Source: Candidatus Nomurabacteria bacterium
GTDB taxonomy: Bacteria; Patescibacteriota; Patescibacteriia; HK-STAS-PATE-3
DNA length: 64,000 nucleotides
Assembly: GCA_023898465.1 (NCBI GenBank)
Contig: CP060223.1
Location: forward strand, 96,001-160,000
Reading direction: 5' to 3'
In this document: piece by piece, positions 729 through 47,376 of the stretch
Numbering within the stretch: position 1 is the first letter of the stretch
Layout of the letters: each line of letters begins with the position of its first letter
Notes under the pieces: model-generated
What the model saw: the letters and a program-made list of their open reading frames with translations, nothing else
What the model was told of the DNA's origin: nothing
Databases searched by the model: none
Made by a program: the position numbers and the translations under genes

Positions 729-861
729 CACGTCGTGCATTCTCAAGGGATGGAAGAGCTTCCATCCCGGAATGAGTGCGAGACCCGTACTCTGAACGTT
801 GACAATTGAACGTATCAGGACTGGTTCCTGCATACGACGAGATAAACTTGGAGGTTTCCGT

Positions 862-2085
862 ATGCGCTGTTTGACCATGGCGTTGTGCCTTTGGCTCATC
901 TTCGTGGCCAATGCGGCGCATGCAGGTGAGTATCAGAATCTCCGACCCGGTCCGCCGGTGTTGGAGCTGGGTGCGTTTTTCGCATCAACCTTTCCCGAAG
1001 CTCTACCACAGCTGCCAGCTGGCACGGTGGTAGCACACTTCCCGTGTCCGGTGCCGGCGACATTCGTGTTTGCCGATCGGAGTCTCCGCACCTACTCACT
1101 TCCGAGTGAGGCAAAGGTGGTGGCGACGGAGCTGCGTCGGGACGATGGTGGAGCGTACTACCAGTTGCTCTATCTCCTCTCGAATAAGCAGGCGAGCTAC
1201 GCGGAGCGATTCGCGTATCCGATCTGGCTGAATAGCGATCCGGTCTACGTCCCCAACAACACCAAACTCTTGGTATTGGAACGTGGTCCCGAGCAAGCGA
1301 CGGTTGTCACTTCTGCTCCTGTGACTGCGACACCGCAGCAGCAGGGTGAAGCGATCAAGACGACGCCGGTGGTGAGAAACACGCCCGTGTCCTCTGCGCC
1401 ATCGACTGGACGGGTTGAGGGTGAGCACATCATCCATCACCCCTTCATTCGCGGGCAGCTTGATTTGAGGACGGAGTTCCTCGGTGTGAAACCCGAGAAC
1501 ATCTTCACTCATCAAGTGATTCCATCGCTTTGGCTGAACCAACACCTTGGTTTGACCGGACGTTGGGAGCGGCACGAAGCGAAGGATCTCGATCCATCGC
1601 AGGGCTGGGGAGTCGGGCTCTGTTACCGGACAGCTCCTATACATCGATTGTCGGTCGAGTACGCTCGATTGACATTTGGTGAGATGAGTTCGTCCGGGCA
1701 AAGCATTCAGCTCGTGCATTTCGAATCCAGGCTACAAACCTGGTTCCTGCATCACGAGTTGGAAGCAGAGCAGCGGGATAACGACGCGAAGGAAGTTTGG
1801 ACTCGACTACGGTCGGGGCTTGCTTTCCAAGTCGGCTATCGTAGCCGGCTGCAGATGGGCGGAGAGTTAGCTAACCTGAACTACGAACTCGTAGCACAGG
1901 ACGGCTACTACTACGTGTCTGCACTTGGGACGCGCTTCAATCGATCTCACTACGGAGCATTTGCCAGCTTGGATACCCATCTGGGTGATCACTTCCCACT
2001 ACGACTTCTGGTCGGCGGCGGGAAGGGCAGTGTTCCAGAATGGAACTACATCAATGCCGAGCTGAGACTCGGAGTTGATTTCTGA
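862..2085 (+). CDS. Outer-membrane beta-barrel-like protein: signal peptide, N-terminal domain, Thr/Pro linker, C-terminal barrel ending ...LGVDF.
   Basis: ATG at 862 lies 8 nt after GGAGG. Signal peptide MRCLTMALCLWLIFVANAAHA. C-terminal Phe and alternating hydrophobic pattern. Paralogous to the protein at 4011-5207 (shared W-VGL-YR block). GC is about 60%. Confidence 0.6.
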   Translation: MRCLTMALCLWLIFVANAAHAGEYQNLRPGPPVLELGAFFASTFPEALPQLPAGTVVAHFPCPVPATFVFADRSLRTYSLPSEAKVVATELRRDDGGAYYQLLYLLSNKQASYAERFAYPIWLNSDPVYVPNNTKLLVLERGPEQATVVTSAPVTATPQQQGEAIKTTPVVRNTPVSSAPSTGRVEGEHIIHHPFIRGQLDLRTEFLGVKPENIFTHQVIPSLWLNQHLGLTGRWERHEAKDLDPSQGWGVGLCYRTAPIHRLSVEYARLTFGEMSSSGQSIQLVHFESRLQTWFLHHELEAEQRDNDAKEVWTRLRSGLAFQVGYRSRLQMGGELANLNYELVAQDGYYYVSALGTRFNRSHYGAFASLDTHLGDHFPLRLLVGGGKGSVPEWNYINAELRLGVDF

Positions 2086-2335
2086 TGTACGAATCCTGGC
2101 CACTTGGTCAGTACTCATAACTCGTCGGGTGGTCAGGAGATCCGTAAGGATTTCTACAAAAGGACCTAAGGGTCCGCGACCTGTGCCGAACGCACACGGA
2201 GGACAACATGCGAAAGCGTGCTCCGCCGACTATCTGATGAGCTTGTGTAACTGACCATGCCCCAATCAACTTGTTTGGGGCTAGGGATTAACCTGCCCCG
2301 ACAACAAAAAATTGGGGCAAGCCAAGGAGGAAGCC

Positions 2336-3625
2336 TTGTTCAAGCTTCGCATCAGCGCGATCTTCGCGCTTCTCATCCTTCTGGGTGCCGGTCTCTATGG
2401 CTGCGCTCAGGAGCCCATCGTGTTCCAGCCCGATCAGGATGTGCCGACCGATCAGCTGCCGGGCGATGGCACAGCCACGCTCAGTCTGCAGATCGGCGGC
2501 GTACCGGCCCAGCACAATGGAGGCGCTTCGAGTGCTTTCATGGTGACCAATACGGTGCAGGTGATCGGCAACATCTTCCTCACCGGTGACCGACTGGACA
2601 CCGAGTGGAAGATGCAGAACTGGAGCAGCGGCGATGTCCAAATCCAGACCATGAACGGTCGTTGGTATTCGGTCGCTCCTTCGGTCGACGGCAACGTCCA
2701 GATCACCAACTTCCTCATCAACGACATCCAGCCGCAGCATTTCGTGCAGCTGGATGAGATGAAGGGGATCTTCGCCCAGGTCAAGCTGTTGCCGGATTCG
2801 TCTGGCTTCCAGTTGTATCAGCTCGAAGACAACCGGGATCAGCTGATGACGGTGCACTACCGAGTCTACGATCCTGCCCCGGCTGACTTCCAGGGACTCC
2901 AGATCGTGGGAACTTCCACGAACTGGAATCAGATGTATCCGGAGGCGATCTACAGCTCCGACTACGGTATCTGGGAGTGGTGGGGTCCGGCGTTGAAGGC
3001 GAGCGGCAACAAGGTCGCTTTCCGGATTCGCGGAAGTGGGGCTCTGCCGACCTCGTATTTGATCACTGCCCAAGGCGAAGTGAACGGTACGCCGGTTGGT
3101 GAAGAGGTCCAGCTCGACTGTACGGAGTTGGTGGAGAACGTGAATACGTACTTCGCCAGCACGACCTGGTTCACCGACCGCGGTTGGTTGGCTGGGAAGC
3201 GAGTCTACCGACTCATCATCCACGAAGATGGTGGTATCGAACAGGGATGCGGAGGCATCCCGATTCAGACGACCATCTCGATCACGAACAACCGCATTCC
3301 GCAGGATCACCACCTGATGTGTGTCTACGACGGCTACAACGACAATCAGCCGTTCGAGATTCCTCGGGTGAGCGGCAAGTGGGAAACCACGCAGATCACG
3401 CTCCATTCTGGTCCGGCGGCTCTGTCGGTCTGGGATACGAGTGACGGAGACAAGCCGATCATCACCACGGTGAAGATCGGCAGCCAGGAAGTGAAGCACC
3501 TCGAAGTGTTTCAGGATCCTGGTTCGGAGCCGACGGTTCACTTCACCTTCGTCCTTGGCGAGGGTCCGACCCTGCAACAGGGGACGGACAATCGCACTGG
3601 TACGATCGGAGGAGAGAACTACTAA
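2336..3625 (+). CDS. Lipoprotein (lipobox LYGC) with a possible CBM/starch-binding-like segment.
   Basis: TTG start 6 nt after AGGAGG. Signal peptide plus LLGAGLYGCAQ lipobox. Segment QIVGTSTNWNQMY...WEWWGP...VAFRIRG resembles CBM20/48-type glycan-binding modules. Confidence 0.55.
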   Translation: MFKLRISAIFALLILLGAGLYGCAQEPIVFQPDQDVPTDQLPGDGTATLSLQIGGVPAQHNGGASSAFMVTNTVQVIGNIFLTGDRLDTEWKMQNWSSGDVQIQTMNGRWYSVAPSVDGNVQITNFLINDIQPQHFVQLDEMKGIFAQVKLLPDSSGFQLYQLEDNRDQLMTVHYRVYDPAPADFQGLQIVGTSTNWNQMYPEAIYSSDYGIWEWWGPALKASGNKVAFRIRGSGALPTSYLITAQGEVNGTPVGEEVQLDCTELVENVNTYFASTTWFTDRGWLAGKRVYRLIIHEDGGIEQGCGGIPIQTTISITNNRIPQDHHLMCVYDGYNDNQPFEIPRVSGKWETTQITLHSGPAALSVWDTSDGDKPIITTVKIGSQEVKHLEVFQDPGSEPTVHFTFVLGEGPTLQQGTDNRTGTIGGENY

Positions 3626-3663
3626 TCGCCAGCCCTGGGAACGCTGACGATTGCACATTCTTG

Positions 3664-3702
3664 CCCCGCCCGCTACAACACTTTGTGTTGAAGCGCGGCG
3701 GG
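3664..3702 (+). terminator. Rho-independent terminator.
   Basis: GC-rich hairpin ccccgcccgc...gcgcggcgggg followed by cTTTCTTTT. Confidence 0.6.
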
Positions 3703-3781
3703 GCTTTCTTTTACCTTGGCAGGATGGAAATGTAACTAGTCTTCAAGTTCTGATGTTTGTTGAAGCAATGTTTCGTAGGGC

Positions 3782-3810
3782 TTGACAAAATAGCACTTTT
3801 CCTGCTAAAG
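3782..3810 (+). promoter_or_regulatory. Sigma70-like promoter. Its -35 context gcTTGACAaaat is shared with the promoter at 7944.
   Basis: TTGACA at 3782 with a 17 nt spacer to cTAAAg. Confidence 0.4.
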
Positions 3811-4010
3811 TTCGCCGTTAACCAATGCGTAAAACCATCTAAAAAACGAACATTTTTACCACAACGACCTTAGTCGTTTGTGCTACTTATGGACATGAAT
3901 GGCTTGAGAAATGCCTAGCATTCCTCAACCGATTCTGGACCGGAAGTACTGCAGTAATTGTCATTCTTTGACAATTGAATTCAGAAGTCATTCTCACAGA
4001 GGAGGGTCTC

Positions 4011-5207
4011 ATGCGGACCTGGTATGTGGTTCTTGCGCTACTGGCGCTCGTCTCCTTTGGGTCCGCTCGGGCCCAGGTCATCGAAATCCCGATCGACTAC
4101 GTCGCGACGGATTCGGTGATTGCGAACTGGCCGCATCTCAACATCGGGGGCAACCCGGTGTACAAGAGCGGCTACCCGGCTGATTCCTTGGCAGTACATG
4201 CTGCTCGGGACGGCTGGTTCAAGACGACCTTCAACTTTCCCGTCGGGATCTACTGTCTCGATAAGGATGGGAAGATCATCAAGGGACGTGTCGAACCCGG
4301 ACAAACCATGAAGAATGGTGCCCGGGCCGATACGCTGATCGTGTCTATTCTAGCTGAGACGCCGGAGCAGACGCTGTATCAGATCCACGTTATTCAGGCG
4401 TGCGGTAACCCCGTGCTCTGGTCAGGCGTCGGTGTGTTGAAAGCACCGAAGCCGACTGGCCCACTGCCGCCGCCAACCCTGACTGTTCCGAAGCCCCCAG
4501 CACCACCTCCCATTGCGGAGACGGAGCCGCCGATCGTAGTAGAGCCTGAAAAACACTTCAGGCTACCGATCGATGGTTGGGCTGGAGTGGCAGGAAGTAA
4601 GTCACTCGAGTCCAAGGCTTGGTCGCTCTTCGAGGGCGTCTACATCGACTTTCCGTTGATCGTGGACAAGCTCACGTTCAAGTTTGGGGCGGCAACGTCT
4701 CAGGCAAACTACGAGAAGCTCCGTGGTCGGACGAGTTACCGAGGTGTTGGCGGCGATATGAGTCGCTGGCAAGTCGGCCTCTTCTACCGGCCTTGGGACA
4801 ACATCCAGGTTACCGGCCTGATTGGTCAGCAGTATGACCATAAGGCTGGCGACTGGCAGGATGGCGTCCAGCTGGAAGGAGTGCTGGGTTTCCCCATCGG
4901 TCGCTGGTGGAACGATGAGGATGTCAGCTACGGCACTACGACCAAAGCACTTTGGTTCCGCACTCGACATGCCTACAAGCTGTCGGGTGAAGGAATGCAT
5001 TGGTGGTCGATCGGCGGCGAGTTTGTCTATGACTCGTTCATGGACAACGATGGTCGATTCTACACTTCGCGCGTTCACGTATTTGGGAAGCGAGAGTTTC
5101 CCGGATTCTGGAATCGCGAGGCTGTCTTCATCTTCGGTGGCGGAAGAGGGAGTAAAGACGAGGCTTGGGGCCTCATAGCAGAACTAGGGCAGCGGCTCTG
5201 GTTCTAG
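4011..5207 (+). CDS. Outer-membrane beta-barrel-like protein, paralog of 862-2085; Pro-rich linker; ends ...GQRLWF.
   Basis: ATG lies 6 nt after GGAGGG. Signal peptide MRTWYVVLALLALVSFGSARAQ. PPPTLTVPKPPAPPP linker. C-terminal Phe. Motif RWQVGLFYR aligns with GWGVGLCYR of the paralog. Confidence 0.6.
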   Translation: MRTWYVVLALLALVSFGSARAQVIEIPIDYVATDSVIANWPHLNIGGNPVYKSGYPADSLAVHAARDGWFKTTFNFPVGIYCLDKDGKIIKGRVEPGQTMKNGARADTLIVSILAETPEQTLYQIHVIQACGNPVLWSGVGVLKAPKPTGPLPPPTLTVPKPPAPPPIAETEPPIVVEPEKHFRLPIDGWAGVAGSKSLESKAWSLFEGVYIDFPLIVDKLTFKFGAATSQANYEKLRGRTSYRGVGGDMSRWQVGLFYRPWDNIQVTGLIGQQYDHKAGDWQDGVQLEGVLGFPIGRWWNDEDVSYGTTTKALWFRTRHAYKLSGEGMHWWSIGGEFVYDSFMDNDGRFYTSRVHVFGKREFPGFWNREAVFIFGGGRGSKDEAWGLIAELGQRLWF

Positions 5208-5221
5208 AAGGGAGATTCCTG

Positions 5222-6385
5222 ATGCGTTTTCTCCGTTTCATGGCCGCTGCGCTGTTGCTGCTCGGTGCCTTCGGGTGCCAGAAGCTCCCCAGCGAGCCGA
5301 TCGACACCGGTGGCAGTCAGCCGCCGCAGGAGTACAACGGACCTGAGTCTGGTCTCGCGCTCAACTTCGAGCGTGGCGCCGGACAATACGAATTCGTTTC
5401 CGACATGTTCATCCATCAGGGTGGCGTGACGGATTGGGCGACTGTAACAGTCAACCCGGATAACTTCTTCCTCACCACCTACGCTGGACACTGGTATAGC
5501 GACATGCTGACCAGGGACGGTGTGCCGGTGCTGGGAGACTACACTCTGGCCGGTTCGACTCCGTCCAACTACTGGATGGATGAGAACCGCGGTGTTTTCG
5601 CGAGCCACATGGTTCTCGTCAGCGACGCTGACAGTGCCTGGGTCTGGCAGTGGCCCTCCAATGCCAGCCAGTTGGTCGACCTCGACATCGAGGTGCTCAA
5701 CTGGTCATCGGCAACGGATCTTGGCGTGGTCGGTACGCCGACGTGTTACGTCGTGCACCCGGCCATGTTGAACCACTTGCATGACAACGTCTACGGACGC
5801 TCGCTACGCCTCCTGCCCGGTGATGCCAAAATCGCTGTGATGGATATGTACGAGCGAGTTGGTCTGGGTGATGCAGTCACGGTCCGTATCAACGGCACCG
5901 AGCTGGTCGCCTACGTCGATGACTTCACGCATGACAACCAGCCGACGGTACATCGTTACTTCCGCTTTCACGTGAACGCGGATGGGACGGTGAGCTCGAT
6001 CGGTACTGAGAACCGATTCTCGTATGGGAACACGGTCTCGGTCAGCAATTCCAATATCGATCCCAGCGCTACGGTGTATCTCAACGGCACAGGCCTCACC
6101 AACGGTGAGATGATGCCGATGACCTATGTCGGCAGCTGGACCTGGCAGCTCACCGGTCTCACGACCTGGGTGGGCGAGCAGGATTTGAGGGTGAGTATGG
6201 AAGACGGGACTGGTGTGTTTCGTACCGTTCGCTTGAACGGAACGGAGTTGCACCACCTGGCTGCCGTGCCGCTCGACCCGGATCCTCCGATCCAGGTCTT
6301 CCGATGCACGCCCATGCATGACCACACGGTGATGCAGGGCGAGGACAACCGGGCCGCTGACATCGGCATGGAGACCGGCGGATGA
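5222..6385 (+). CDS. Lipoprotein (lipobox LGAFGC).
   Basis: ATG after AGAAGGGAG. Signal peptide MRFLRFMAAALLLLGAFGCQ. High GC. Confidence 0.55.
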   Translation: MRFLRFMAAALLLLGAFGCQKLPSEPIDTGGSQPPQEYNGPESGLALNFERGAGQYEFVSDMFIHQGGVTDWATVTVNPDNFFLTTYAGHWYSDMLTRDGVPVLGDYTLAGSTPSNYWMDENRGVFASHMVLVSDADSAWVWQWPSNASQLVDLDIEVLNWSSATDLGVVGTPTCYVVHPAMLNHLHDNVYGRSLRLLPGDAKIAVMDMYERVGLGDAVTVRINGTELVAYVDDFTHDNQPTVHRYFRFHVNADGTVSSIGTENRFSYGNTVSVSNSNIDPSATVYLNGTGLTNGEMMPMTYVGSWTWQLTGLTTWVGEQDLRVSMEDGTGVFRTVRLNGTELHHLAAVPLDPDPPIQVFRCTPMHDHTVMQGEDNRAADIGMETGG

Positions 6386-7869
6386 GCGAAGAAGGTGATG
6401 CGACAAGTCGTGAGGTGCCTCCCCAAGTAAGAGAGGTACTTCGCCAAATGCAACGAGTCGCGAAGAGAGATCGCAAAAAGAAGGCGAAGCATCGAGCCCG
6501 CAGAGAGGAACGGAAAAAACAGGCAAAGGCAAGAGTGAAAGCTCGAACGGGTGAGCAGTCAACAGGTTCTCCAAGGAAAGGAGATGAACCTCGTCGTCCT
6601 GTTCCGCCGCCTCAGCCTGCACCAAGTGCTTCGCCGTCCTACGCATCTCTACTGGGAGATAAGCTTGGGGGAATTCCTCAAGTAAGACGAAATCCGAAGA
6701 GAGCAGAAACAAACCTGGGAGGCTCGCCGAGCTTCCCCCAAGATGAGGAGGGTCATGTAATGCCCGAGGTGTCCATGCGCGAAGAAGGAGGATCGAGGAA
6801 GCTTTTGATTGCCACTGTGGCGATCTTGTGCGTCCTCTTGGTCGGGGTGCTGATCTACACGCATCCCTGGAGTCCTCAGCAAGGTCTGACGGAGACCGAG
6901 GTGTCGGATATGATCAGGGAGTTCGCTGATCAGATGCCGGCTCCGGTCGCTGAAATCCCCGATGACGTGGTACGCAAGGGTGACCTTGCTTCGATGCAGC
7001 CGGCGGCGATCACTCTCAGCGCTTTCGACGAGACCTATCTCGATACGCTGTGGGCGACGGTCAAGGATCCGGTGACCGGGAAGATCGACTCGACGATGGT
7101 CGTGAAGACCCGGACGAGGAATCCCATCACTGATTTGCAGAAGGACGTGAAGAGTACCAATGCCGAGGCTCGTGCAGCCAAGGTTGCGGCACGGAATGCG
7201 GAGAAGCGTCTCAAGGAGACGCCGACCCAATTCGCCGTGACCGTGCCTTCGACTTCCACATCGACTTCGCTTCACCAGCCTGGTGGAGTGCAGTTGGGTG
7301 GTACCACGACCACGACGGCGCCTGTGCAGATGACGACTCGAACGAGTACGCAAGCCGGGCTGGTGGCTGGTACGATCGGAGGTGGTTCGCCGCCCCCGCC
7401 GCCGGCTAGCAACGTCGCTGTGTCCATGACTACCACGATGGTTCCGGCCGGTGAACAGGTGATGGGTGGGGACGGCTTGATGAAGCAGGGTCCGGCCGTT
7501 GCCTTTGTCTACAACGGTCAGACCTACGTTCGTCGGGATCTGGTGCAGCGCAACAAGTACGGCGACCCGATCAACCCCAGTCGAGCTGACCAGAACTTCT
7601 ACGTGATGGCCGGCGAGCAGGGGATGAACTGGAAGCTCGTCAATCCGGCCAAGCAGAAGATGACGGTCCAGGGCGACTATTTGGTCTGGCCTGGCGTGAT
7701 CAAAGGTCCTTTCCAGGTCGGCTGGGTGGATCCGAACGACCCGGCCTACATGCCTGAAAGTGGCGTAGTCTGGGCTCCGATCGCTGAGTTCTACTCCGGC
7801 TACGACGGGACCTTCTGTCGTGACCCCGACTATCAGTTGAGGGCTGTGGCGATCCAGCAGATGCCGTAG
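6382..7869 (+). CDS. Membrane-anchored protein with a Lys/Arg-rich N-terminal tail, one TM, a Thr-rich linker and a conserved C-terminal domain shared with 8047-9225. An alternative start exists at 6760.
   Basis: ATG at 6382 overlaps the upstream stop. An in-frame ATG at 6760 has a very good GGAGGG RBS. TM LLIATVAILCVLLVGVLIY. C-terminal about 120 aa shares ~45% identity with the 8047 protein. Confidence 0.55.
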   Translation: MSEEGDATSREVPPQVREVLRQMQRVAKRDRKKKAKHRARREERKKQAKARVKARTGEQSTGSPRKGDEPRRPVPPPQPAPSASPSYASLLGDKLGGIPQVRRNPKRAETNLGGSPSFPQDEEGHVMPEVSMREEGGSRKLLIATVAILCVLLVGVLIYTHPWSPQQGLTETEVSDMIREFADQMPAPVAEIPDDVVRKGDLASMQPAAITLSAFDETYLDTLWATVKDPVTGKIDSTMVVKTRTRNPITDLQKDVKSTNAEARAAKVAARNAEKRLKETPTQFAVTVPSTSTSTSLHQPGGVQLGGTTTTTAPVQMTTRTSTQAGLVAGTIGGGSPPPPPASNVAVSMTTTMVPAGEQVMGGDGLMKQGPAVAFVYNGQTYVRRDLVQRNKYGDPINPSRADQNFYVMAGEQGMNWKLVNPAKQKMTVQGDYLVWPGVIKGPFQVGWVDPNDPAYMPESGVVWAPIAEFYSGYDGTFCRDPDYQLRAVAIQQMP

Positions 7870-7897
7870 TCCGCGACTGCAACGTTCTTTACTTCAA

Positions 7898-7936
7898 CCC
7901 CCGCTATATCTACGGATGTAGCGGGGCTTTCTTTTT
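7898..7936 (+). terminator. Rho-independent terminator.
   Basis: Hairpin ccccgctatatctacggatgtagcgggg followed by cTTTCTTTTT. Confidence 0.7.
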
Positions 7937-7943
7937 ACTATGC

Positions 7944-7972
7944 TTGACAAAATGCCAAAAATAGCATACTAT
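7944..7972 (+). promoter_or_regulatory. Sigma70 promoter.
   Basis: TTGACA, 17 nt spacer, TACTAT. Confidence 0.55.
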
Positions 7973-8046
7973 AGCCGGTTCTTTTTGCACCTCACAATCT
8001 AGTTACACAAGCGAGAGACACTACACATCCCAACCGGGAGGACTAC

Positions 8047-9225
8047 ATGCTCCAACGTTTCTTTGCGTGGTCTTTGCTGGCGCTCTTCGCCTTCGGCTGT
8101 GCCGGAGGTAGTGCCACGCTGAAGCAGCATCAGCAGCCCGTCGGGCAGGTCTACGTGGGCGACTGCGTGCCGTCGGATGGCATTCATCCGACTGGCTACC
8201 TTCGCCTGACCAAGCCGCCGGAGGACTTCAACTCGATGCTGTCGATGTGGCACGCTGTTCAGGCCGAGGGTTCATCCGAGCCCTCGAAGATCGAGGTCGA
8301 CTACATCCGGGTCTACGCCCACGTAGCCGGCCGCGATTCACTGCTCGACAGCGACGAGTACAACGACATGATCGGGGACGGAGGTCTCTATCTTCGTCAT
8401 CCCTCGTGGTTCTACAACGATGACCATACGAGTCTGCCCTGCGAGTTCGACATGGTCAACGGTTACTTGGTCTTGCGACCGAGCGACTACCCGGATCGAG
8501 TCTTTCACTGGTGGAATTCCTACCATCCAGCGGAGGATGTCTGGCGTGTCACTATTCCGGCCGGTGCTACCAACTGCTGGGCAGAGACTCGGATTCGGAT
8601 TACGGGTCCAGCCTATGTCCAGGGCGGCATTGACTACTGGCGTTCACTCACTGCTCCGTACGGCGGCGTCGAAGTGAACAACCGGGAAGCCTGCATGTCC
8701 AACTGGACTTGCTCGGCTGATCCGGGTTGGCAGACCATCGTGGTTGGTAAGGACAAGCCGCAGGGCGACAGCGCTGTGGTCGATGCCGATGAGAACGGGA
8801 AACCGAAAGTCGTCCAGGCTCCGGTCTACGATCCTTTCGAGAGCAAGGCCGACGGTCTCCTCAAGAAAGGCGCTGCTGTCTGTTTTGTACAAGACGGACG
8901 CACCTACTTCCCGAAGGAGATCGTGGCGACGAACAAGTACAGCGATCCGGCTCGCCCCAAGAATGGCAAGTACTACTTGCTGGGCGGGGTGAAGCCATGG
9001 GCTATCGCCGGCGACGATCAAGAGCTCCGGGAAAACGGGGATTACCTCTACTATCCCGGCGTGGTCGACAAGGTGTGTCAGGTGGGCTGGGAGGATCCGG
9101 CCGACGCTTCGGCCGATCCGTCCGGAACCGTATGGAGCGCTTCAGCGGAACTTTTCTCGGGTCGCCCGGGATCAGTTTCGAAGAACGGTCAGTACGGCTA
9201 CCTGCCAGTCAATCTCTCCAACTAG
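8047..9225 (+). CDS. Lipoprotein carrying the same C-terminal domain as 6382-7869.
   Basis: ATG lies 7 nt after GGGAGG. Lipobox LFAFGCAG. C-terminal block GLLKKGAAVCFVQDGRTY...NKYSDP...GDYLYYPGV...QVGWEDP...GTVW...AELFSG aligns with the 6382 protein. Confidence 0.6.
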   Translation: MLQRFFAWSLLALFAFGCAGGSATLKQHQQPVGQVYVGDCVPSDGIHPTGYLRLTKPPEDFNSMLSMWHAVQAEGSSEPSKIEVDYIRVYAHVAGRDSLLDSDEYNDMIGDGGLYLRHPSWFYNDDHTSLPCEFDMVNGYLVLRPSDYPDRVFHWWNSYHPAEDVWRVTIPAGATNCWAETRIRITGPAYVQGGIDYWRSLTAPYGGVEVNNREACMSNWTCSADPGWQTIVVGKDKPQGDSAVVDADENGKPKVVQAPVYDPFESKADGLLKKGAAVCFVQDGRTYFPKEIVATNKYSDPARPKNGKYYLLGGVKPWAIAGDDQELRENGDYLYYPGVVDKVCQVGWEDPADASADPSGTVWSASAELFSGRPGSVSKNGQYGYLPVNLSN

Positions 9226-9240
9226 GAGAAGGTGATTCAC

Positions 9241-9277
9241 CCCGGTGCATGCAATGCGTGCGCCGGGTTTTCTTATT
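9241..9277 (+). terminator. Rho-independent terminator.
   Basis: Hairpin cccggtgcatgcaatgcgtgcgccggg followed by TTTTCTTATT. Confidence 0.7.
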
Positions 9278-9304
9278 GACCATGGGCAATATTTTTGCTA
9301 TAGT
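9276..9304 (+). promoter_or_regulatory. Sigma70 promoter.
   Basis: TTGACC, 17 nt spacer, TATAGT. ATG at 9335. Confidence 0.55.
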
Positions 9305-9334
9305 CGCCTGTTCACTTTCTTTTACTGAGTTGTA

Positions 9335-11107
9335 ATGTTACGCAATATTCTTGTCATTCTCGGACTCGCCATTTCACTCACCAGCTTCACGCCAAAGCAG
9401 GAGAGTCGCGATGGCGTGTATGCGTTTACCACGCCTCCTTTAAGTATTGGTCAAGGAGTGGTGGTGACAAATGATGGCATTGTGATTGGCGATGGCGTGA
9501 CTGATTCCCGGCAAGGAATACAGGAGCTGCTTAGTGGTGATGACTTGGAACATTTTCTTGACCAAAGCTCTCAGCAGTTTGATGCCGTAGAGCTGCGTAT
9601 CTGGACATGGTTCCTGGGTCAAAACGATTTTACTATTGGCACGGTGAATAATTTCCTTGCCCGTGCTCATGCCCACGGCTTGCAAGTGTACTTAAATACT
9701 TGGGAATATCCTGGCACACATCCCGACCTTCTGCCTGCTGAGTATCAGGCATATAAACTTGCTGACACCGGACAACGCGTGCCGGCCCTAGTGAATGATG
9801 GACAAATCAGCGCGCAGCACATTGATAAAGCAAACCCCGCTGCACTGGAATGGATGAGTGGGCAACTGCGGAGTGCGCTGACTTCTTTTGACGTTTTCGA
9901 TGGATACCTCATTGTTGAGGATAGGGTTTCCGATTGGGTGCATGGGTCTTTCCCACAGTATGTACGTTATTGGGATTCACCGACCTATTCCGATGCAGCG
10001 CTTGATTCATTTCAACATTATCTCCTACTGCATGGTCAGGATGCAACACAGCGATTCCCAGTGGATCGTCCGGAGTTAGTTTCTCAATTCACCCAGTATG
10101 TTCCTTCAGCCCCAGAAAGTGCTTTATGGAAGTATTGGTATCAATGGCGCTTTGAACTTTTTGCTGACTATGTGGAGAGTCTGAGTAATGCGGTGAAGTC
10201 AGTGCAAAGGGTGCCAGTGCTTTACATGCCTTGGCAACGTGTGGTGGATGAATTTGATTACGCCTACGCTGATGATTGGTCAGCCAATCGTTGGGATGTT
10301 GGATACGGTCCGGGCAATCCCGAGAATGCCATCTTCGGCGTCTCGCTTCACACCCTGGCAAAACGCGGATCAATTGATGCCTACGTGCATGAATTTGGAG
10401 AGGATGGTACGCATGAGCTCTGGCCAATGTCTTTTAATGCGCTGCAGTTAGAAAAAGCCAAAATTGCTTTGTCAGATTCTTATGTTACCCTAGGCAGCTT
10501 TATTCAATTTTTTAATTACGAAGGTAGAGAAATAGTTTCCCCTGAACTACTTCAAGATGCCTTAGCCATCGGACGGCAAAACGAGGCAAAGATTTTTGTA
10601 GCTTACGATGTTGCCACACTGTATGATCGTTCAGGTCGCTATGATGCACATACCTCAGCGCTTTGGCAGCAAGCAAGAACACATGCATATGCCATTGATG
10701 AAGAGGAAATCCGAAACGCAAGTCAGCTAGCGCCAGCGCAGGTTTTTGCTCGAAAATTACCTGAACAGATTCCAGAAGGAGTGGCCGCCTGGACTGCCGA
10801 TGATGGGTATGTGTATGTGCGGACCGAGGCTCTGCCCGGTAACGGACCATACTATGTCGTATACGATCACTGGAATGCACCACTACTTGATGCGCAGCAC
10901 CTTATGGAATACTATCCAGAGCATGGTTTAGTCGCTATACATGCTGATGGGTTAAAAGGCGCTGCTTTTCAAATCATTACTCCGGGACCGCAGGGTAGCG
11001 TCGCGTGGTCAGAAATTCGTGAACAGCTTTGTGAGCTGGGGTATCAAGGGATCGTATGTAGCCCAAATAGTTGGCTTTATCAACCAGTGGGGCTTCATTC
11101 CATGTAG
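9335..11107 (+). CDS. Secreted hypothetical protein, 590 aa, possibly a glycoside-hydrolase-like TIM barrel.
   Basis: Signal peptide MLRNILVILGLAISLTS. No family recognised with confidence. GC about 50%, intermediate between the island and the host. Confidence 0.5.
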   Translation: MLRNILVILGLAISLTSFTPKQESRDGVYAFTTPPLSIGQGVVVTNDGIVIGDGVTDSRQGIQELLSGDDLEHFLDQSSQQFDAVELRIWTWFLGQNDFTIGTVNNFLARAHAHGLQVYLNTWEYPGTHPDLLPAEYQAYKLADTGQRVPALVNDGQISAQHIDKANPAALEWMSGQLRSALTSFDVFDGYLIVEDRVSDWVHGSFPQYVRYWDSPTYSDAALDSFQHYLLLHGQDATQRFPVDRPELVSQFTQYVPSAPESALWKYWYQWRFELFADYVESLSNAVKSVQRVPVLYMPWQRVVDEFDYAYADDWSANRWDVGYGPGNPENAIFGVSLHTLAKRGSIDAYVHEFGEDGTHELWPMSFNALQLEKAKIALSDSYVTLGSFIQFFNYEGREIVSPELLQDALAIGRQNEAKIFVAYDVATLYDRSGRYDAHTSALWQQARTHAYAIDEEEIRNASQLAPAQVFARKLPEQIPEGVAAWTADDGYVYVRTEALPGNGPYYVVYDHWNAPLLDAQHLMEYYPEHGLVAIHADGLKGAAFQIITPGPQGSVAWSEIREQLCELGYQGIVCSPNSWLYQPVGLHSM

Positions 11108-11135: not shown

Positions 11136-11600
11136 ATGCAGTGGAGGTTGTGGATCTACGTGTTGGCTTGCGTACTGTGCGCATCGCAGTCTGCGTACGG
11201 TCAGTCTGAGCAATTCCAGCCAATGTACAGCATAGCGCCAGAGTATCCACTTTCAGCGTGGATTGCTGGTGAGTCTGGGTCGGTGATGGTGGGAATGCAG
11301 ATTGACCCGGTCGGCCGTGTGGAGGAGGTCTGGGTTCAGTCTTCAACAAGCTCGTTGTTTGAGCGGTATGCGCTCGAGGCGGCGAAGCAGTGGGTTTTTG
11401 TACCGATCATGCCCATGGTGGATCTGATCGACGCGGTGGATGGCGTTATGGTCTTGCGTAGAATTCCGGAGCTTGAAACAGCGAGTTACCTGGAAACACA
11501 TCCGGGAATCATTGACAGTCTCGTCTACGAGTGGACGGAAAAACAGGACCAACCGTCCCCGGTCCGTAGCGTCAGTATCCCTTTCAATTTCAACCACTAA
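11136..11600 (+). CDS. TonB C-terminal-domain protein, short form.
   Basis: ATG 7 nt after AGGAGG. Signal/anchor MQWRLWIYVLACVLCASQSAYG. Block SIAPEYPLSAW..GESGSVMVGMQIDPVGRVEEVWVQSS..LFERYALEAAKQWVFVP matches the TonB_C fold signature (PxYP...G.V.v.f.id..G.v.dv.v..S....LD.aAl.av..w.f.P). Confidence 0.5.
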   Translation: MQWRLWIYVLACVLCASQSAYGQSEQFQPMYSIAPEYPLSAWIAGESGSVMVGMQIDPVGRVEEVWVQSSTSSLFERYALEAAKQWVFVPIMPMVDLIDAVDGVMVLRRIPELETASYLETHPGIIDSLVYEWTEKQDQPSPVRSVSIPFNFNH

Positions 11601-11634
11601 GTACGAGCCGCTTATCCTCTGGGTAGGCGGCTTT

Positions 11635-12792: not shown

Positions 12793-12867
12793 TGGCTCCG
12801 GGGACAGGGATCGAACCTGCGACCAAGTGGTTAACAGCCACCTGCTCTACCACTGAGCTACCCCGGA
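12793..12867 (-). tRNA. tRNA-Asn (anticodon GTT).
   Basis: Reverse complement TCCGGGGTAGCTCAGTGGTAGAGCAGGTGGCTGTTAACCAC...GGTTCGATCCC...CCCCGGAGCCA. Anticodon loop CTGTTAA. CCA is encoded. A promoter (TTGCCA, 17 nt spacer, TACACT) lies on the minus strand at 12883-12919. Confidence 0.9.
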
Positions 12868-42659: not shown

Positions 42660-44894
42660 ATGCCAAATAAATCATTAAAAAAATCTATGCCAAGTACAAA
42701 AGGATCACGCACGGAGGAGGTTGGAGTAAAGACTCGCACTCGAGTTGATACCGCATTTGGTTTGTTGTTGATAGGTGGAGCACTTAGCGTTGGTATGTTT
42801 GCCTTTTTCTTCTTTAGCCAGGGATTCTCAAAGGAAGCTACTTCATTTGGCAATAAGGTGAACGAGCAACATCGCGCATCAAGCCTTTGGCCACATGTGA
42901 GAACGGCGATTCACTTCAATCATCGGCCTGTAAATAGCACAACAGAGGCAAATTTCTTAGCCACGCACTTTGACTATTATGTTGGTCAAGTCGGTACTTA
43001 TGCAAATTATTTACGTCAGGTTAATCCAAACATCAATCTGGCCTTTATGCGCAGCGTACGAGCTATTAACAGCGTGCCGGAATTAGAAACTTGGCTGGCA
43101 GATCATCCTGAATATGATGAGGAAGAATTTTTCTTGCACTACACCCAAGATACCTTGGTTGGACCTAGTGGAAATCAGATTCTCGTAAAGGGTTGGCGAG
43201 AGGAGTGCTCACCAAATTGTGAGCCAGCCGCAACGGCAACTACACGTGAAGAGAGTCGAGTGCCAGATTCTGGTGAGTTTGCCCGGGGTTGGTATGTGCC
43301 AAATCCAAACTATGAAGGTCTGCCTGTTTTTCAAGCTGACATGCTTGCTTTGCGACAAAGTTGGTACGGAATTGATGGCACTTTCTTTGATTGGTGTGCT
43401 GGAGCATCTGTACAAAGCGAGAATCACCTGAGTCGCACTGCTGAGTATGCCGACATAGATGATTCAGATAATTTTCGCCATCCTTTTGTAGGTGATTCAA
43501 TCGCTATCATGGATAAGGTTTTGGATCGCTATAACGAGGAATATGCCGATCAGTATGGATCAATTGATTGGATTCCTTGTAACACGGTAGCTGGATATTG
43601 GACCTATGATCACGGCAACATTGAAAACAATGACTACCGAGACGCTTTACTTGCCAGCGAGTCAAACAGCGAGTTTTTCTGGGAAGTGTGGATGCAATAT
43701 AATGATACTTATCCACTTACCTCAGGGCCAAGTCGAGATGTGCATTTGAAGTATCTCAAAGATACCATTGCGCTATCAAACCAGAAACAAACTGGACTCG
43801 AATTGGTTGCCCTGGGTGATCAGGCTAGCGATCGAACAAACACCTTCTTACTCGGCTTAGCGTATCTCGTCCAAACACCTGATCGCTCGGTAGTGTCATA
43901 TCGACTTGATGTGCCAGCTCATAATTCAGATGAGCATCTACAAAATTGGGCCTGGTTACCACAGTTAGCTTACGACATTGGCCAACCTGCTCAGAACCCA
44001 GCTGGTATTCGAGATGTCTTTGGCAATCAAAACACCAGTGAATTCTATGAATGGGCGACCGGAGCTGATCCGGGAAATTCAGGACATACCTATTCGATTT
44101 ATGCTCGACAATACGAGAATGCATTGGTGCTTACCAAAATGCGTCAGGCTCGTGAGGATGCTTGGGGAGATGCAACCGCGACCACGCATGAGCTTGATCA
44201 GCCATATCGAGTCTTACGGGCAGATGGAAGTGTAGGAGATGAAGTGAGTCAAGTTACTTTGCGTGATAACGAAGCAGTTATCCTCATTCGTACAGAAGCT
44301 CCATTAATCCAAAATGTGCAGACCGACCGTGTCTGGAGCACCCGAGCTTTAATTAGCGCTAAGGTGCAGGACGCACAATCAGTTGTTGTGCAGTACGGTA
44401 AGACCACCCAGTATGGCAATGAACTGGTTTTGAAGCGCTCACGGGTTGATGGTACTTACTCCGTCAATATTAATCGCCTCACTCAAGGCACGCTCTATCA
44501 CTATCGAATAAAGGCAACGGGTCAAAACGGCGCGACAGTGTATTCAAACGATTACAACTTCCGCACGCTGCAGAATTCCTTATCTTTGAAAGATGTTATT
44601 CATGTTTTACGAGATGATGGGACCATCGATGTCACCGTGGAATCGCCAAATGCGGATTTAGTCCAGCTGACGTATAACTCAAAGAAAACACCAAACGTTA
44701 CTGTTACCCTTGAGGAAGCGAGTGAGGGCGTCTTCACCACAACACTTTCTGGATTATTGCCTAATGAGCAATATACCTACAAGGTGCTCACACAACAGGG
44801 AAAAACAAAAGCGTATGCCTCGGGCAGTTTTACCCCTCGGAAGATAGATGAAGATATGTTCCCCAGCATCACACGCACGACAGTAGAAGAATAA
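42660..44894 (+). CDS. Large secreted/anchored hypothetical protein with C-terminal FN3-like beta-sandwich repeats.
   Basis: N-terminal TM. Two C-terminal FN3-like modules (VQYGKTTQYGNEL... and ...YTYKVLTQQGKTKAYASGSF). Confidence 0.55.
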   Translation: MPNKSLKKSMPSTKGSRTEEVGVKTRTRVDTAFGLLLIGGALSVGMFAFFFFSQGFSKEATSFGNKVNEQHRASSLWPHVRTAIHFNHRPVNSTTEANFLATHFDYYVGQVGTYANYLRQVNPNINLAFMRSVRAINSVPELETWLADHPEYDEEEFFLHYTQDTLVGPSGNQILVKGWREECSPNCEPAATATTREESRVPDSGEFARGWYVPNPNYEGLPVFQADMLALRQSWYGIDGTFFDWCAGASVQSENHLSRTAEYADIDDSDNFRHPFVGDSIAIMDKVLDRYNEEYADQYGSIDWIPCNTVAGYWTYDHGNIENNDYRDALLASESNSEFFWEVWMQYNDTYPLTSGPSRDVHLKYLKDTIALSNQKQTGLELVALGDQASDRTNTFLLGLAYLVQTPDRSVVSYRLDVPAHNSDEHLQNWAWLPQLAYDIGQPAQNPAGIRDVFGNQNTSEFYEWATGADPGNSGHTYSIYARQYENALVLTKMRQAREDAWGDATATTHELDQPYRVLRADGSVGDEVSQVTLRDNEAVILIRTEAPLIQNVQTDRVWSTRALISAKVQDAQSVVVQYGKTTQYGNELVLKRSRVDGTYSVNINRLTQGTLYHYRIKATGQNGATVYSNDYNFRTLQNSLSLKDVIHVLRDDGTIDVTVESPNADLVQLTYNSKKTPNVTVTLEEASEGVFTTTLSGLLPNEQYTYKVLTQQGKTKAYASGSFTPRKIDEDMFPSITRTTVEE

Positions 44895-46558: not shown

Positions 46559-46918
46559 ATGGACAGCGCAACTCTTGAACAAATCAAAGCCAAATTATTG
46601 CAACAAAAGGAGCAGCTACAATCTGAGTTACAGCGAGAATCTTCGCCAACTCCGGATGAGGTAGATGGTCGCACCGCATCTTTCCCTGACTATGGCGATC
46701 ATGATGATGAAAACGCCTCTGAGGTAGCAGATTATGCGACCAATATGCAGGTGGAGGAAAACCGGGAGGAATTGCTTGCTTCGATAGAAAAAAGCTTGAC
46801 CGAAATTGAGCAGGGTAGCTATGGGAAGTGTCAGAGCTGCGGCAAAGAAATTGCAGCTGAACGGCTCTTAGCAAATCCAACCGCGCAAACGTGTCTGAGC
46901 TGCGCCAATCAAGCTTAA
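46559..46918 (+). CDS. DksA/TraR-family C4 zinc-finger protein.
   Basis: Coiled-coil N-terminus followed by CQSCGKEI...CLSC. Confidence 0.7.
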   Translation: MDSATLEQIKAKLLQQKEQLQSELQRESSPTPDEVDGRTASFPDYGDHDDENASEVADYATNMQVEENREELLASIEKSLTEIEQGSYGKCQSCGKEIAAERLLANPTAQTCLSCANQA

Positions 46919-47376
46919 GTCTCTTTAGCAGCACACATCGGTTTAGCATAGTACTAGGCCTTTGCCTTTTGGTGCTTGATCGTTTTTTTAAAGCCCTAGT
47001 GCTGCATGGGTTTACTTGGCCAAACCCTGATGCTTGGTTAAGTATTGGATATTATCCAAATCCAAATTTTTTTGCAGATACTAATTTAGCTTACCCGCTC
47101 ATCATTGGTATTACCACAGTTGTTCTCTTGTTCGTCATTGGACTATTTGTGTATGGCATACGCTATCGTTATCCAGGGATTGTGGCAGCTGGTGTGTGGA
47201 TTATTCTGGGAGGAATGAGCAATTTTTGGGATCGACTCAAGTATCAGCACGTGCTTGATTATGTTGGTGTCGCACATTGGCCGGTATTTAACATTGCCGA
47301 TATCCTTATTTTTATCGGCGTGATTTGGTATGGTGTGATTATCCTACGTAGTTGGAAAAGTCAGGGGATGCGTTGA
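46891..47376 (+). CDS. lspA: Lipoprotein signal peptidase (signal peptidase II).
   Basis: GGMSNFWDR plus VFNIADILIFIGV, which are the LspA C-terminal motifs GNxxDR and FNxAD. Four TM helices. Confidence 0.65.
   Translation: MSELRQSSLSLFSSTHRFSIVLGLCLLVLDRFFKALVLHGFTWPNPDAWLSIGYYPNPNFFADTNLAYPLIIGITTVVLLFVIGLFVYGIRYRYPGIVAAGVWIILGGMSNFWDRLKYQHVLDYVGVAHWPVFNIADILIFIGVIWYGVIILRSWKSQGMR

Follow-up and report, generated by a model that had tools for sequence, protein, structure and literature searches.

The closest described 12-stranded porins belong to the KdgM/NanC family (e.g. VhGalP, 8xua; KdgM, 4pr7; NanC, 2wjr). Other barrels that invite comparison are the beta-domains of type Va autotransporters and of intimin/invasin (BrkA, 3qq2; Hbp, 3aeh; NalP, 1uyo; intimin, 4e1s), the pore of autotransporters being plugged by a helix, and the amyloid secretion channel FapF (5o65), whose N-terminal domain is a coiled coil. 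SusE/SusF-type SGBPs are surface glycan-binding lipoproteins made of tandem beta-sandwich or CBM-like domains, and TonB/TolA-type proteins combine an N-terminal TM anchor with a long poly-Pro linker and a globular C-terminal domain. Export systems of the Wzp/GfcD class pair a PCP (Wzz) protein with a beta-barrel porin (PMC9603273).

The locus described here lies in a 64-kb stretch of DNA (the window) from a genome of 'Candidatus Nomurabacteria' (CPR/Patescibacteria). Its barrel proteins (A1 and A2) have no sequence or Pfam relationship to the KdgM/NanC porins; A2 and the window's A1 possess an N-terminal domain and a Pro-rich linker, a lipoprotein gene accompanies each A gene without exception, and the host belongs to the CPR rather than to the proteobacteria. 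No Autotransporter Pfam match was obtained for A, whose linker is Pro-rich and predicted to be disordered, and whose N-terminal domain is small (about 110 aa), variable, and absent in some orthologs. Unlike FapF, A has a beta N-domain; it shows no sequence similarity to this channel and lacks the partners of a fap operon. The lipoproteins (B1 and B2) can be likened to SusE/SusF-type proteins and CBM20/CBM48 modules in their flexible tether, in their several beta-sandwich domains and in the position of their genes next to that of an outer-membrane-type barrel. However, the partner barrel has 12 strands, in contrast to the 22-stranded TonB-dependent SusC, SusD is missing, no CBM is detectable in B by sequence (Pfam), and glycan binding is a prediction. 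Protein C has the TM anchor, the poly-Pro linker and a C-terminal domain of about 120 aa in common with the TonB/TolA type, and a TonB_C protein is encoded nearby, but profile comparison shows no relationship between the C-terminal domain of C and TonB_C, and neither ExbBD nor TolQR genes were found in the 64-kb window. Searches of the block proteins against Pfam, NCBIfam, PHROGs, PADLOC and PDB sequences revealed no named system, in agreement with the preliminary description of this DNA.

With moderate confidence, we interpret the block as an envelope module that is native to its host, inherited vertically, probably expressed at a very high level, and restricted to a small clade of Nomurabacteria-like Patescibacteria. 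Its gene content, predicted folds, synteny, rarity, and codon and Shine-Dalgarno (SD) signatures are treated below as established.

Gene content of the block

The core consists of two tandem pairs, each composed of a predicted 12-stranded OMP-type beta-barrel protein (A) and a multi-domain beta-sandwich lipoprotein (B) with a predicted CBM20/48-like fold. The pairs are followed by a bitopic membrane protein (C), with a long linker ending in a novel C-terminal domain, and usually by a lipoprotein (D) carrying that same domain:

18–728, + strand: Wzz/PCP-like two-TM protein, cut at the window start (full 254 aa in L001/L018)
862–2085, + strand: A1; signal peptide ...AAHA/G, variable N-terminal domain, C-terminal OMP-like beta-barrel ending ...RLGVDF
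2336–3625, + strand: B1 lipoprotein; lipobox LYGC, multi-domain beta-sandwich, paralog of B2
3663–3710, + strand: GC-rich hairpin and T-run after B1, terminator-like, read from the sequence
3782–3811, + strand: sigma-70-like promoter match (TTGACA-18-TAAAGT with TG) upstream of A2
4011–5207, + strand: A2; signal peptide ...ARA/Q, ends ...RLWF
5222–6385, + strand: B2 lipoprotein; lipobox AFGC, disordered tether, several beta-sandwich domains, CBM20/48-like fold
6382–7869, + strand: C, bitopic membrane protein; one TM segment, long coiled and poly-Pro linker, novel C-terminal domain of about 120 aa
7899–7926, + strand: intrinsic-terminator-like hairpin after C (12-bp stem, T-run)
7944–7972, + strand: sigma-70-like promoter match upstream of D
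8047–9225, + strand: D lipoprotein; lipobox AFGC, C-terminal domain as in C
9241–9267, + strand: intrinsic-terminator-like hairpin after D (12-bp stem, 9 GC pairs)
9276–9304, + strand: sigma-70-like promoter match upstream of E590
9335–11107, + strand: E590, conserved exported 590-aa protein, family unknown
11136–11600, + strand: secreted TonB_C-domain protein (PF03544, E = 3e-11)
11605–11633, + strand: intrinsic-terminator-like hairpin (13-bp stem), closing the locus

The preliminary description held that all six block proteins are exported, and the signals read from the translations bear this out: signal peptides in A1 and A2, lipoboxes in B1, B2 and D, and one TM segment in C. Its further proposal of a duplicated module, made of barrel/lipoprotein pairs and two proteins with a common C-terminal domain, is supported by the paralogy of B1 and B2 (E = 1e-10, 23% identity over 345 aa) and of C and D, whose common domain (38% over 130 aa, E = 1e-21) was found in 4/4 long loci. 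As for the two barrels, both match the barrel-only ortholog of relative L004 (A1, 7e-12; A2, 1e-6), and A1 is also homologous to a barrel-only ortholog in L007, but the direct comparison of A1 with A2 gives only E = 0.12. The strongest terminator-like and promoter-like sites are located in spacers, which agrees with the view that the block has promoters and terminators of its own.

C does contain a single TM segment, but the basic tail ascribed to it is in doubt: low GC3 and a strong SD favour a start other than that of the long ORF, which includes this tail and begins at 6382. Translation probably begins mainly at Met127 (position 6760), as indicated by a GC3 jump at about 6742, an open frame with an RBS, and an SD of -12.0 at Met127 compared with -6.4 at Met1. 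NCBI annotates the 369-aa form of C that has this start. The N-terminal domain of D is also present in secreted dockerin-bearing proteins of other organisms, and in proteins apparently possessing a T9SS-type tail.

Predicted barrels and the cell envelope

A2 is modelled as a conserved beta N-domain with two conserved Cys residues, a Pro-rich linker and a 12-stranded OMP-like barrel, and B2 as a chain of domains (pLDDT 77.5) whose best PDB matches are starch/glycogen-binding CBM48/20/25/26 modules, the two alignments behind these models being shallow, with 7 and 9 sequences. The B lipoproteins possibly bind glycans. For A, the 7-sequence alignment yielded an overall pTM of 0.47 and a mean pLDDT of 69, the dyad contrast is modestly significant (p = 0.03), and no OMP family is matched at the sequence level in Pfam, NCBIfam or PDB sequences. 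These values are what might be seen if A1 and A2 were beta-rich proteins that are soluble or attached to the wall in a monoderm envelope, with a spurious likeness to OMPs, a reading which we hold to be improbable. In 11/11 members of the A family the C-terminal residue is F or W, and the C-terminus carries a beta-signal.

According to the preliminary description, the locus implies a diderm host. This deduction from OMP-like barrels is logical in itself. It is, however, contradicted by taxonomy, as Patescibacteria (CPR), including Nomurabacteria, have been described as having no outer membrane, and are regarded as lacking BAM as well (PMC12102498; bioRxiv 10.1101/2021.05.31.446380). The host is therefore not a classical diderm, the Nomurabacteria group being regarded as monoderm. 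It is the clash between OMP-type barrels and this accepted view that makes the locus notable: a cell regarded as having neither an outer membrane nor BAM offers no obvious site or route for beta-barrel assembly, which counts against a native envelope module. The gene lspA is present within the window.

One way around the clash would be for an episymbiotic CPR cell to secrete the barrels, which would then insert into its bacterial host's outer membrane. The N-domain and Pro-rich linker would act as a tether, B, C and D would be exposed on the symbiont, and the whole would form an attachment and feeding channel. Such a conduit would account for genuine-looking OMPs with a beta-signal in cells thought to have no outer membrane of their own, and is compatible with the faster evolution of the block relative to its flanks, with the variability or absence of the A N-domains, and with a signature suggestive of high expression. 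It is purely inferential, though, the beta-signal implies BAM assembly from the periplasmic side, and monomeric OMP-type barrels are not known to insert into the membrane of another cell; we give this scenario little chance.

On the native-module reading, which we prefer, each barrel A may serve as a membrane-embedded channel or anchor, while its partner B would bind glycan at the cell surface, and C and D would tie the assembly to the cytoplasmic membrane via their common domain. Both A–B complex formation and the membrane location of the barrels are what we infer from these data.

Codon usage and Shine-Dalgarno sites

The GC content of positions 730–9330 is 57.1%, versus 46.4% in 9331–64000 and a mean of 46.1% (sd 1.07, maximum 48.3) in equal-sized windows elsewhere; calculation thus confirmed the GC excess noticed earlier, although not the value of about 60%. 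The six block coding sequences each have 56.6–59.6% GC. The excess sits at third codon positions (mean GC3 of 0.70, versus 0.433 +/- 0.054 in 38 other genes; Mann-Whitney p = 2.8e-7) and is limited to coding DNA, the intra-block spacers having a GC of 0.45–0.53. Values of GC3 and SD in the window are 0.63 and -10.5 for A1, 0.76 and -11.2 for B1, and 0.73 and -10.3 for D, and the GC3 ranking is broadly kept across loci, with the B genes at the top in most and A1 lowest or near-lowest. Every genome of the clade has strong SD sites (-10 to -14.6 kcal/mol) ahead of the block genes, whereas the flanking genes mostly have no strong SD and most genes in the clade have none.

The codon usage of the block is unlike that of its own genome (RSCU r = -0.04) and close to that of the L007 and L004 blocks (r = 0.90 and 0.83) and of the native L004 flanks (r = 0.71), and a preference for NCG codons is common to the block and the higher-GC relatives. 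This speaks against a native block, and could also be produced by cassette exchange, in which the A1–D block, and separately the TonB_C gene, would have been replaced through homologous recombination by the versions of a higher-GC relative with the same locus, which kept the donor's composition. The absence of the signature from groEL fits such an exchange, as does the variation of the 3' part of the block (D, a 161-aa lipoprotein and DUF4832) between lineages. We nevertheless regard it as unlikely. The block has a higher GC3 than its flanks in the window and in L007 and L008 alike; the shifts occur exactly at gene boundaries, low-GC3 E590 lying between high-GC3 D and TonB_C; and GC3 is low, in two genomes, in the C 'tail', which is untranslated or weakly translated. 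The signature also occurs, in two genomes, in a vertically conserved GAPDH-like gene that low-GC3 genes set apart from the block (RSCU r = 0.70 with the block and 0.16 with the rest), its ortholog in a relative exceeding its own flanks in GC3. Moreover, the strong-SD contrast holds in L004, a relative of uniform GC, the block proteins (25–49% similar) stand further from every sampled relative than the flanks do, and Gly and Ala codon usage is host-like.

We read the GC3 and SD pattern as probably a signature of high expression, and the special codon usage fits very high expression better than foreign origin. The high GC would then result from selection for C/G-ending codons in strongly translated genes, namely the block, the GAPDH-like gene and TonB_C. 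As an observation that does not suit the high-expression reading, groEL and rpoD, which are usually highly expressed, do not carry the codon signature, and the groEL SD is only moderate.

Neighbourhood and inheritance of the locus

In all relatives examined the block occupies the same multi-gene neighbourhood, with the conserved order ABC, MacB, GAPDH-like, baeRF, HAMP, TSP3, Wzz, [A1 B1 A2 B2 C ...], E590, m129, flavodoxin, and every contig found has B following A. The block has neither flanking repeats nor mobility genes, and plasmid or phage relatives of it were not found. Together with a codon signature that extends to the conserved GAPDH-like gene and changes at gene boundaries, and with SD sites that accompany the block throughout the clade, the uniform-GC relative included, this argues against the horizontal acquisition initially proposed; the block is probably not an acquired island. 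Three independent assemblies are identical across both block borders, and the NCBI locus tags of its genes are consecutive (H6760_00405, which is A1, to 00430).

The Wzz-like gene directly upstream of the barrel and lipoprotein genes recalls the PCP-plus-porin arrangement, and the locus could accordingly be pictured as a polysaccharide exporter, with the Wzz-like protein as co-polymerase, the barrels as outer channels, the lipoproteins as accessory components, and E590 and DUF4832 as glycan-processing enzymes. We assign this a low probability. Neither a glycosyltransferase, flippase or polymerase nor an OPX (Wza-like) protein or tyrosine kinase was seen in roughly 8.5 kb of upstream or 50 kb of downstream sequence, and the A barrels, with 12 strands, are much smaller than known polysaccharide porins, which have 16–18 strands. 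The Wzz-like neighbour, 51–61% identical in relatives, gave weak matches to GNVR and TIGR01006, the Wzz match being far below family cut-offs, and it stands outside the codon and SD class of the block (GC3 0.44, no strong SD).

Downstream, E590 (38–49% identical in L007 and L008) has no match in Pfam, NCBIfam or PDB, and is of host-typical composition (GC3 0.43, no SD) despite its place within the conserved locus. A short TonB-C protein had been noted as following the block; it is indeed present, but only beyond this 590-aa gene. The TonB_C gene shows the block-like signature (GC3 0.65, SD -12.2), and its secreted product may be co-expressed with the block.

The gene cluster and its products

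The compositional island at 730-9330 is occupied by six genes of the same strand. Their export features, read from the translations, are as follows:

862-2085, +: A1, predicted beta-barrel; cleavable signal peptide
2336-3625, +: B1, lipoprotein; lipobox LYGC
4011-5207, +: A2, predicted beta-barrel; cleavable signal peptide
5222-6385, +: B2, lipoprotein; lipobox AFGC
6382-7869, +: C, protein with one transmembrane (TM) segment
8047-9225, +: D, lipoprotein; lipobox AFGC

A signal peptidase II gene is present in the window at 46891-47376. In the NCBI record the genes carry consecutive tags (H6760_00405 to 00430), every product being a "hypothetical protein". The reading of this block as an exported envelope module, put forward in the preliminary description, is borne out. 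The paralogy proposed there holds for B1 and B2 (E = 1e-10) and for C and D, which have a C-terminal domain of about 130 aa in common (38% identity, E = 1e-21). The link between A1 and A2 is weak: their direct similarity is marginal (E = 0.12), and they are joined indirectly, via the barrel-only ortholog of a related locus (E = 7e-12 and 1e-6).

The strongest promoter-like and terminator-like matches are located in the spacers of the block, in agreement with the earlier claim that it has promoters and terminators of its own, and these sites would divide the genes into the transcription units A1-B1, A2-B2-C, D and E590-TonB_C (E590, an exported 590-aa protein, 9335-11107; TonB_C, a secreted TonB_C-domain protein, 11136-11600). 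The packing of A2-B2-C is tight, with a 14-nt gap followed by an overlap. In a relative (L008, 4487-5365, -), an IS element encoding an rve-family transposase lies within the B1-A2 spacer, a position that fits two barrel-lipoprotein pairs forming separate transcription units.

The start of C deserves separate mention. The first 120 or so codons of the long ORF are low in GC at third codon positions (GC3), both in the window and in the related locus L007, and GC3 jumps at an internal Met that has AGGAGG ahead of it; Met127 is the start given by NCBI and by one gene caller. The 126-codon basic "tail" ahead of it (6382-6759, +) is A-rich, low in GC3 and open, as in 0.4% of shuffles. Since C of L007 has the same two-part structure, two isoforms of the protein are possible.

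Predicted barrels, lipoproteins and their relation to known systems

For the A family, a closed antiparallel transmembrane beta-barrel of 12 strands is predicted. When the model was submitted to Foldseek, outer-membrane barrels were the sole matches, and the C-terminal domains are predicted to be barrel-like, as the preliminary description had supposed; Hbp, a COG4313 channel, intimin, FapF and NalP are listed among the fold-level likenesses. Fold searches with A2 were dominated by barrel matches in both runs, which left its N-terminal domain without a fold assignment. The last residue is F or W in all 11 members of the family, and the hydrophobic residues before it alternate, as in the classical beta-signal of outer membrane proteins (OMPs). 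The predicted strands also suggest a hydrophobic/polar dyad (64% versus 30% hydrophobic faces), whose contrast, calculated on these predicted strands, reaches a modestly significant 0.34, where the null gives 0.235 +/- 0.049 (p = 0.03). That the barrels are an artefact of modelling seems to us very unlikely.

The resemblance to described barrels is one of fold. With KdgM/NanC porins the A proteins have no more than this in common, as the family gave no Pfam or NCBIfam match at E <= 0.1 and no PDB sequence match. The likeness to the translocator domains of autotransporters, intimin and FapF is likewise at the fold level: A has no match to Pfam Autotransporter, and in A2 the linker (residues 147-185) is rich in Pro, has no helix and is modelled at a pLDDT below 50, whereas type Va autotransporters have a helical linker in the pore. 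Sus-like systems differ in that SusC is a 22-stranded TonB-dependent barrel with a plug, and no Pfam match to TonB_dep_Rec, Plug or SusD was found among the block proteins; moreover, SusD has a helical fold, while B is all-beta in the model and hence not SusD-like. Judged by the models, the A proteins would be OMP-type barrels by fold, with no sequence-based membership of a known family.

The preliminary description had noted a CBM-like segment in the first lipoprotein. A beta-sandwich of the CBM20/CBM48 type is indeed predicted for B, but no Pfam CBM sequence match was obtained. The lipoproteins resemble CBM-based surface glycan-binding proteins at the level of fold, and glycan binding is putative. 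Their conserved motif "VVGT.T.W/Y/F" resembles, in our reading, the "GSFNNW" motif of AMPK-beta. Weak matches of the B profile to giant Ig/cadherin/sushi repeat proteins were considered spurious.

A relationship of the domain shared by C and D to TonB_C was ruled out: alignment of this domain with the TonB_C protein of the window (hhalign) gave a probability of 0.3%, and there was no Pfam match. C, lacking a TonB_C C-terminal domain, differs in this from the TonB family. The N-domain of D (window 8047-8750; proteins P0004-P0011) looks like an undescribed secreted module, to judge from its motifs (IEVDYIRVY...GGLYLR...HWW...RITG.A.VQGGIDY), which also occur in secreted proteins of unrelated organisms. 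One of these homologues contains dockerin repeats and others an extra E-set-like domain; the tail of the latter is presumably a T9SS-type C-terminal sorting signal, as read by eye.

The view that the block matches no described system stands, since the six proteins, and E590 as well, gave no match in Pfam, NCBIfam, PHROGs or PADLOC. Comparison of A, B, D, the C/D C-terminal domain and E590 with PDB sequences and profiles yielded nothing meaningful; the sole match below E = 0.1, to the capsid protein 7yjl (E = 0.007), was disregarded as weak. Homologues are few. D has 11 matches in 5.8 billion proteins, mostly to the N-domain only; a protein search with A returned 6 matches; B gave 2 by word-indexed search and, when 1.84 billion representatives were scanned exhaustively with HMMER, 9 real members. 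A search anchored on the adjacent Wzz-like gene recovered no more than two GTDB genomes and a single additional metagenome contig. By these counts the block families are extremely rare, being confined to about ten lineages, and at the sequence level four unrecognised families (A, B, the C/D C-terminal domain and E590) appear to make up the system. Its type, a barrel plus a surface lipoprotein, is known; what is new is the families of which it is built, and such a system is unexpected in this phylum.

Locus conservation and the nature of the GC excess

The same gene order recurs on all contigs of sufficient length, as was found when it was searched for. Upstream it runs ABC, MacB/FtsX, 2-Hacid_dh, GAPDH-like, baeRF/Host_attach, HAMP, u60, TSP3 and Wzz, and downstream E590, (TonB_C), m65, m129 and flavodoxin. 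Relatives keep this order at 42-82% identity, the block genes (25-49% identical) being less conserved than their flanks. Behind every barrel gene comes a lipoprotein gene. The 3' part varies in a modular way: the window and L004 are the only loci with D, L007 encodes instead a DUF4832 protein and a 161-aa lipoprotein that has the C-terminal domain of C and D, and in L008 C stands alone. The metagenome-assembled genome that contributes L007 and L012 (GCA_964637345.1, "uncultured Gammaproteobacteria bacterium") retains synteny of at least 15 genes with the Nomurabacteria genome at 38-82% identity, so its label looks unreliable and is probably wrong.

No gene of the locus is better conserved (60-66% identity) than the one always found ahead of the Wzz-like gene; its product is a TM protein of 196 aa with TSP3 calcium-binding repeats of the bacterial type (L001 1326-1916 / L018 7088-7678, +, just upstream of the window); we take a motif seen in it by eye to be of the pseudopilin (GspG) type. 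The Wzz-like protein (18-728) might point to polysaccharide export, a reading that we consider quite unlikely: its match to TIGR01006 is weak (E = 5.6e-8, far below the cut-off), and, in contrast to a Wzz/PCP-dependent export locus, no OPX (Wza), polymerase/flippase or glycosyltransferase genes occur in the neighbourhood of the block.

Actual calculation confirmed that GC content is not uniform and that the compositional island is real: 730-9330 has 57.1% GC versus 46.4% in the remainder, equal-sized windows elsewhere averaging 46.1% (sd 1.07, max 48.3), and its GC3 is 0.70 against 0.433 +/- 0.054 (p = 2.8e-7). Codon usage of the island (RSCU) is uncorrelated with that of the host genome (r = -0.04) and resembles that of the corresponding block in relatives of higher GC (r = 0.83-0.90), which alone would suggest transfer. 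These correlations also speak for an exchange of cassettes among relatives as the source of the composition.

Four lines of evidence argue otherwise and suggest that the "island" belongs to a special, strongly translated gene class. First, GC3 of the block exceeds that of its own flanks in the window, L007 and L008; B genes rank highest in most loci and A1 lowest or near-lowest. Second, a type II (archaeal-type) GAPDH-like gene 4 kb upstream (L018 3573-4673, +; about 5 kb ahead of the window start), separated from the block by low-GC3 genes and 82% identical between two lineages, has GC3 of 0.63, NNY to C of 0.66 and RSCU correlated with the island (r = 0.70) rather than with the rest (0.16); its ortholog in a relative has GC3 of 0.76 versus 0.56 in the flanks. 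Third, the basic tail of C is low in GC3. Fourth, TonB_C and every gene of the block are preceded by strong Shine-Dalgarno (SD) sites (-10 to -12.7 kcal/mol), against a mean of -2.2 for the other 32 genes (p = 2e-5). This dichotomy is also seen in L004, L007, L008, L014 and L015, L004 being telling because its GC is uniform. Cassette exchange is, in view of these four lines, an unlikely origin of the composition.

The steps in GC3 coincide exactly with gene boundaries (the value stays low up to the end of wzz, is high at the start of A1 and still so at the end of D, is low in all of E590 and rises again in TonB_C), and the spacers inside the block are genome-typical in GC. We read the block as a cluster within a strongly translated gene class, not as foreign DNA, and on codon and SD signals its genes are apparently among the most strongly translated of the cell. 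The secreted TonB_C protein bears the same expression signature. A generic high-expression codon bias at first looked excluded, as groEL and rpoD are without the codon signature of the block, but the GAPDH-like gene and the SD sites brought it back into consideration; groEL and rpoD still count against it. We disfavour GC-biased gene conversion, since enrichment is absent from both the spacers and the C tail and the usage of Gly, Ala and Arg codons has not shifted. For genome scanning this is a cautionary case: a sharp 10-point GC "island" can mark an expression class, not transfer, the marks here being codons that end in C or G together with strong SD sites. Throughout the window and L004, L007, L008, L012 and L018, most genes have no detectable SD and a minority have a very strong one (GGAGG, -10 to -14.6 kcal/mol), which implies two classes of translation initiation in the clade.

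The horizontal acquisition proposed in the preliminary description is probably wrong, given that the block occupies the same site in all relatives and shares its expression-class signature with the GAPDH-like gene. Although the composition deviates, relatives without the block at this site and marks of mobility were not found: neither repeats nor mobility genes occur at its borders, the locus in the window contains no integrase, and no relatives were detected among plasmids or phages. Origin from a mobile element was ruled out on the absence of border repeats and of plasmid or phage similarity, and chimerism of the assembly by the NCBI record and three independent Logan assemblies, 100% identical across both borders. 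A tRNA-Asn gene (12793-12867, -) lies 3.5 kb beyond the block; its 3' 34 nt are identical in a related genome (L009 6867-6900). Beside the tRNA, L008 (12294-16363) carries a large serine recombinase, a Toprim primase and a DUF5659 gene, in what looks like an integrative element at tRNA-Asn absent from the window. The IS and the recombinase of L008 are lineage-specific insertions.

Predicted barrels and lipoproteins in a CPR genome

The most interesting point, not apparent from the sequence at first reading, is the presence of OMP-like barrels in a genome of the Candidate Phyla Radiation (CPR). Housekeeping proteins encoded in the window match exactly NCBI entries from a 1,082,586-bp contig of "Candidatus Nomurabacteria bacterium", which belongs to the CPR (Patescibacteria). 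These bacteria are described as lacking an outer membrane (PMC12102498; bioRxiv 10.1101/2021.05.31.446380), and we found no literature report of OMP-type barrels in them. The earlier inference of a diderm host follows logically from the proteins, but is at odds with the envelope generally accepted for the phylum; in the approximately 72 kb read of the 1.08-Mb genome, genes for BamA, Lpt and Lol were not found.

The invariable order of barrel and lipoprotein genes and the tight packing of A2-B2-C suggest A-B complexes. In such an assembly a 12-stranded channel or anchor (A) would pair with a surface lipoprotein (B), a putative glycan binder. C, composed of a TM anchor, a long linker with poly-Pro and the C-terminal domain, could connect the assembly with the cytoplasmic membrane, and D, or the 161-aa lipoprotein of L007, would present the same C-terminal domain from a lipid anchor. 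The membrane of the barrels might be an outer layer of the CPR cell itself or the outer membrane of its host cell. It is a tentative possibility, and one we would not yet favour, that a small Nomurabacteria-like clade makes abundant genuine OMP-type barrels and surface lipoproteins, either for its own outer layer or as a device inserted into the host.

If this were true in the first way, some CPR bacteria would have a previously unrecognised outer lipid or protein layer, and the group would not be uniformly monoderm; in the second, self-contained barrels would be exported into the host outer membrane for attachment and feeding. Either way, four new families would define an envelope system without a described counterpart. 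Whether CPR cells have one membrane or two bears on how bacteria gained or lost the outer membrane in the course of evolution, and on the ways in which ultra-small episymbionts attach to their hosts and feed from them. The locus offers a compact, testable gene set, with predicted OMP-type barrels bearing a classical C-terminal assembly signal in a lineage where they are unexpected.

Further genes of the window may be mentioned here. Two encode proteins that are probably surface-exposed, namely a 744-aa protein with CBM48/fn3/purple-acid-phosphatase-N-like domains (42660-44894, +) and a giant ORF of 2046 aa (57756-63896, +). A third encodes a leucyl-tRNA synthetase of 1194 aa (50614-54198, +), in which an alpha/beta-hydrolase domain (Abhydrolase_1/Ser_hydrolase, residues ~250-450) is inserted in the catalytic core.
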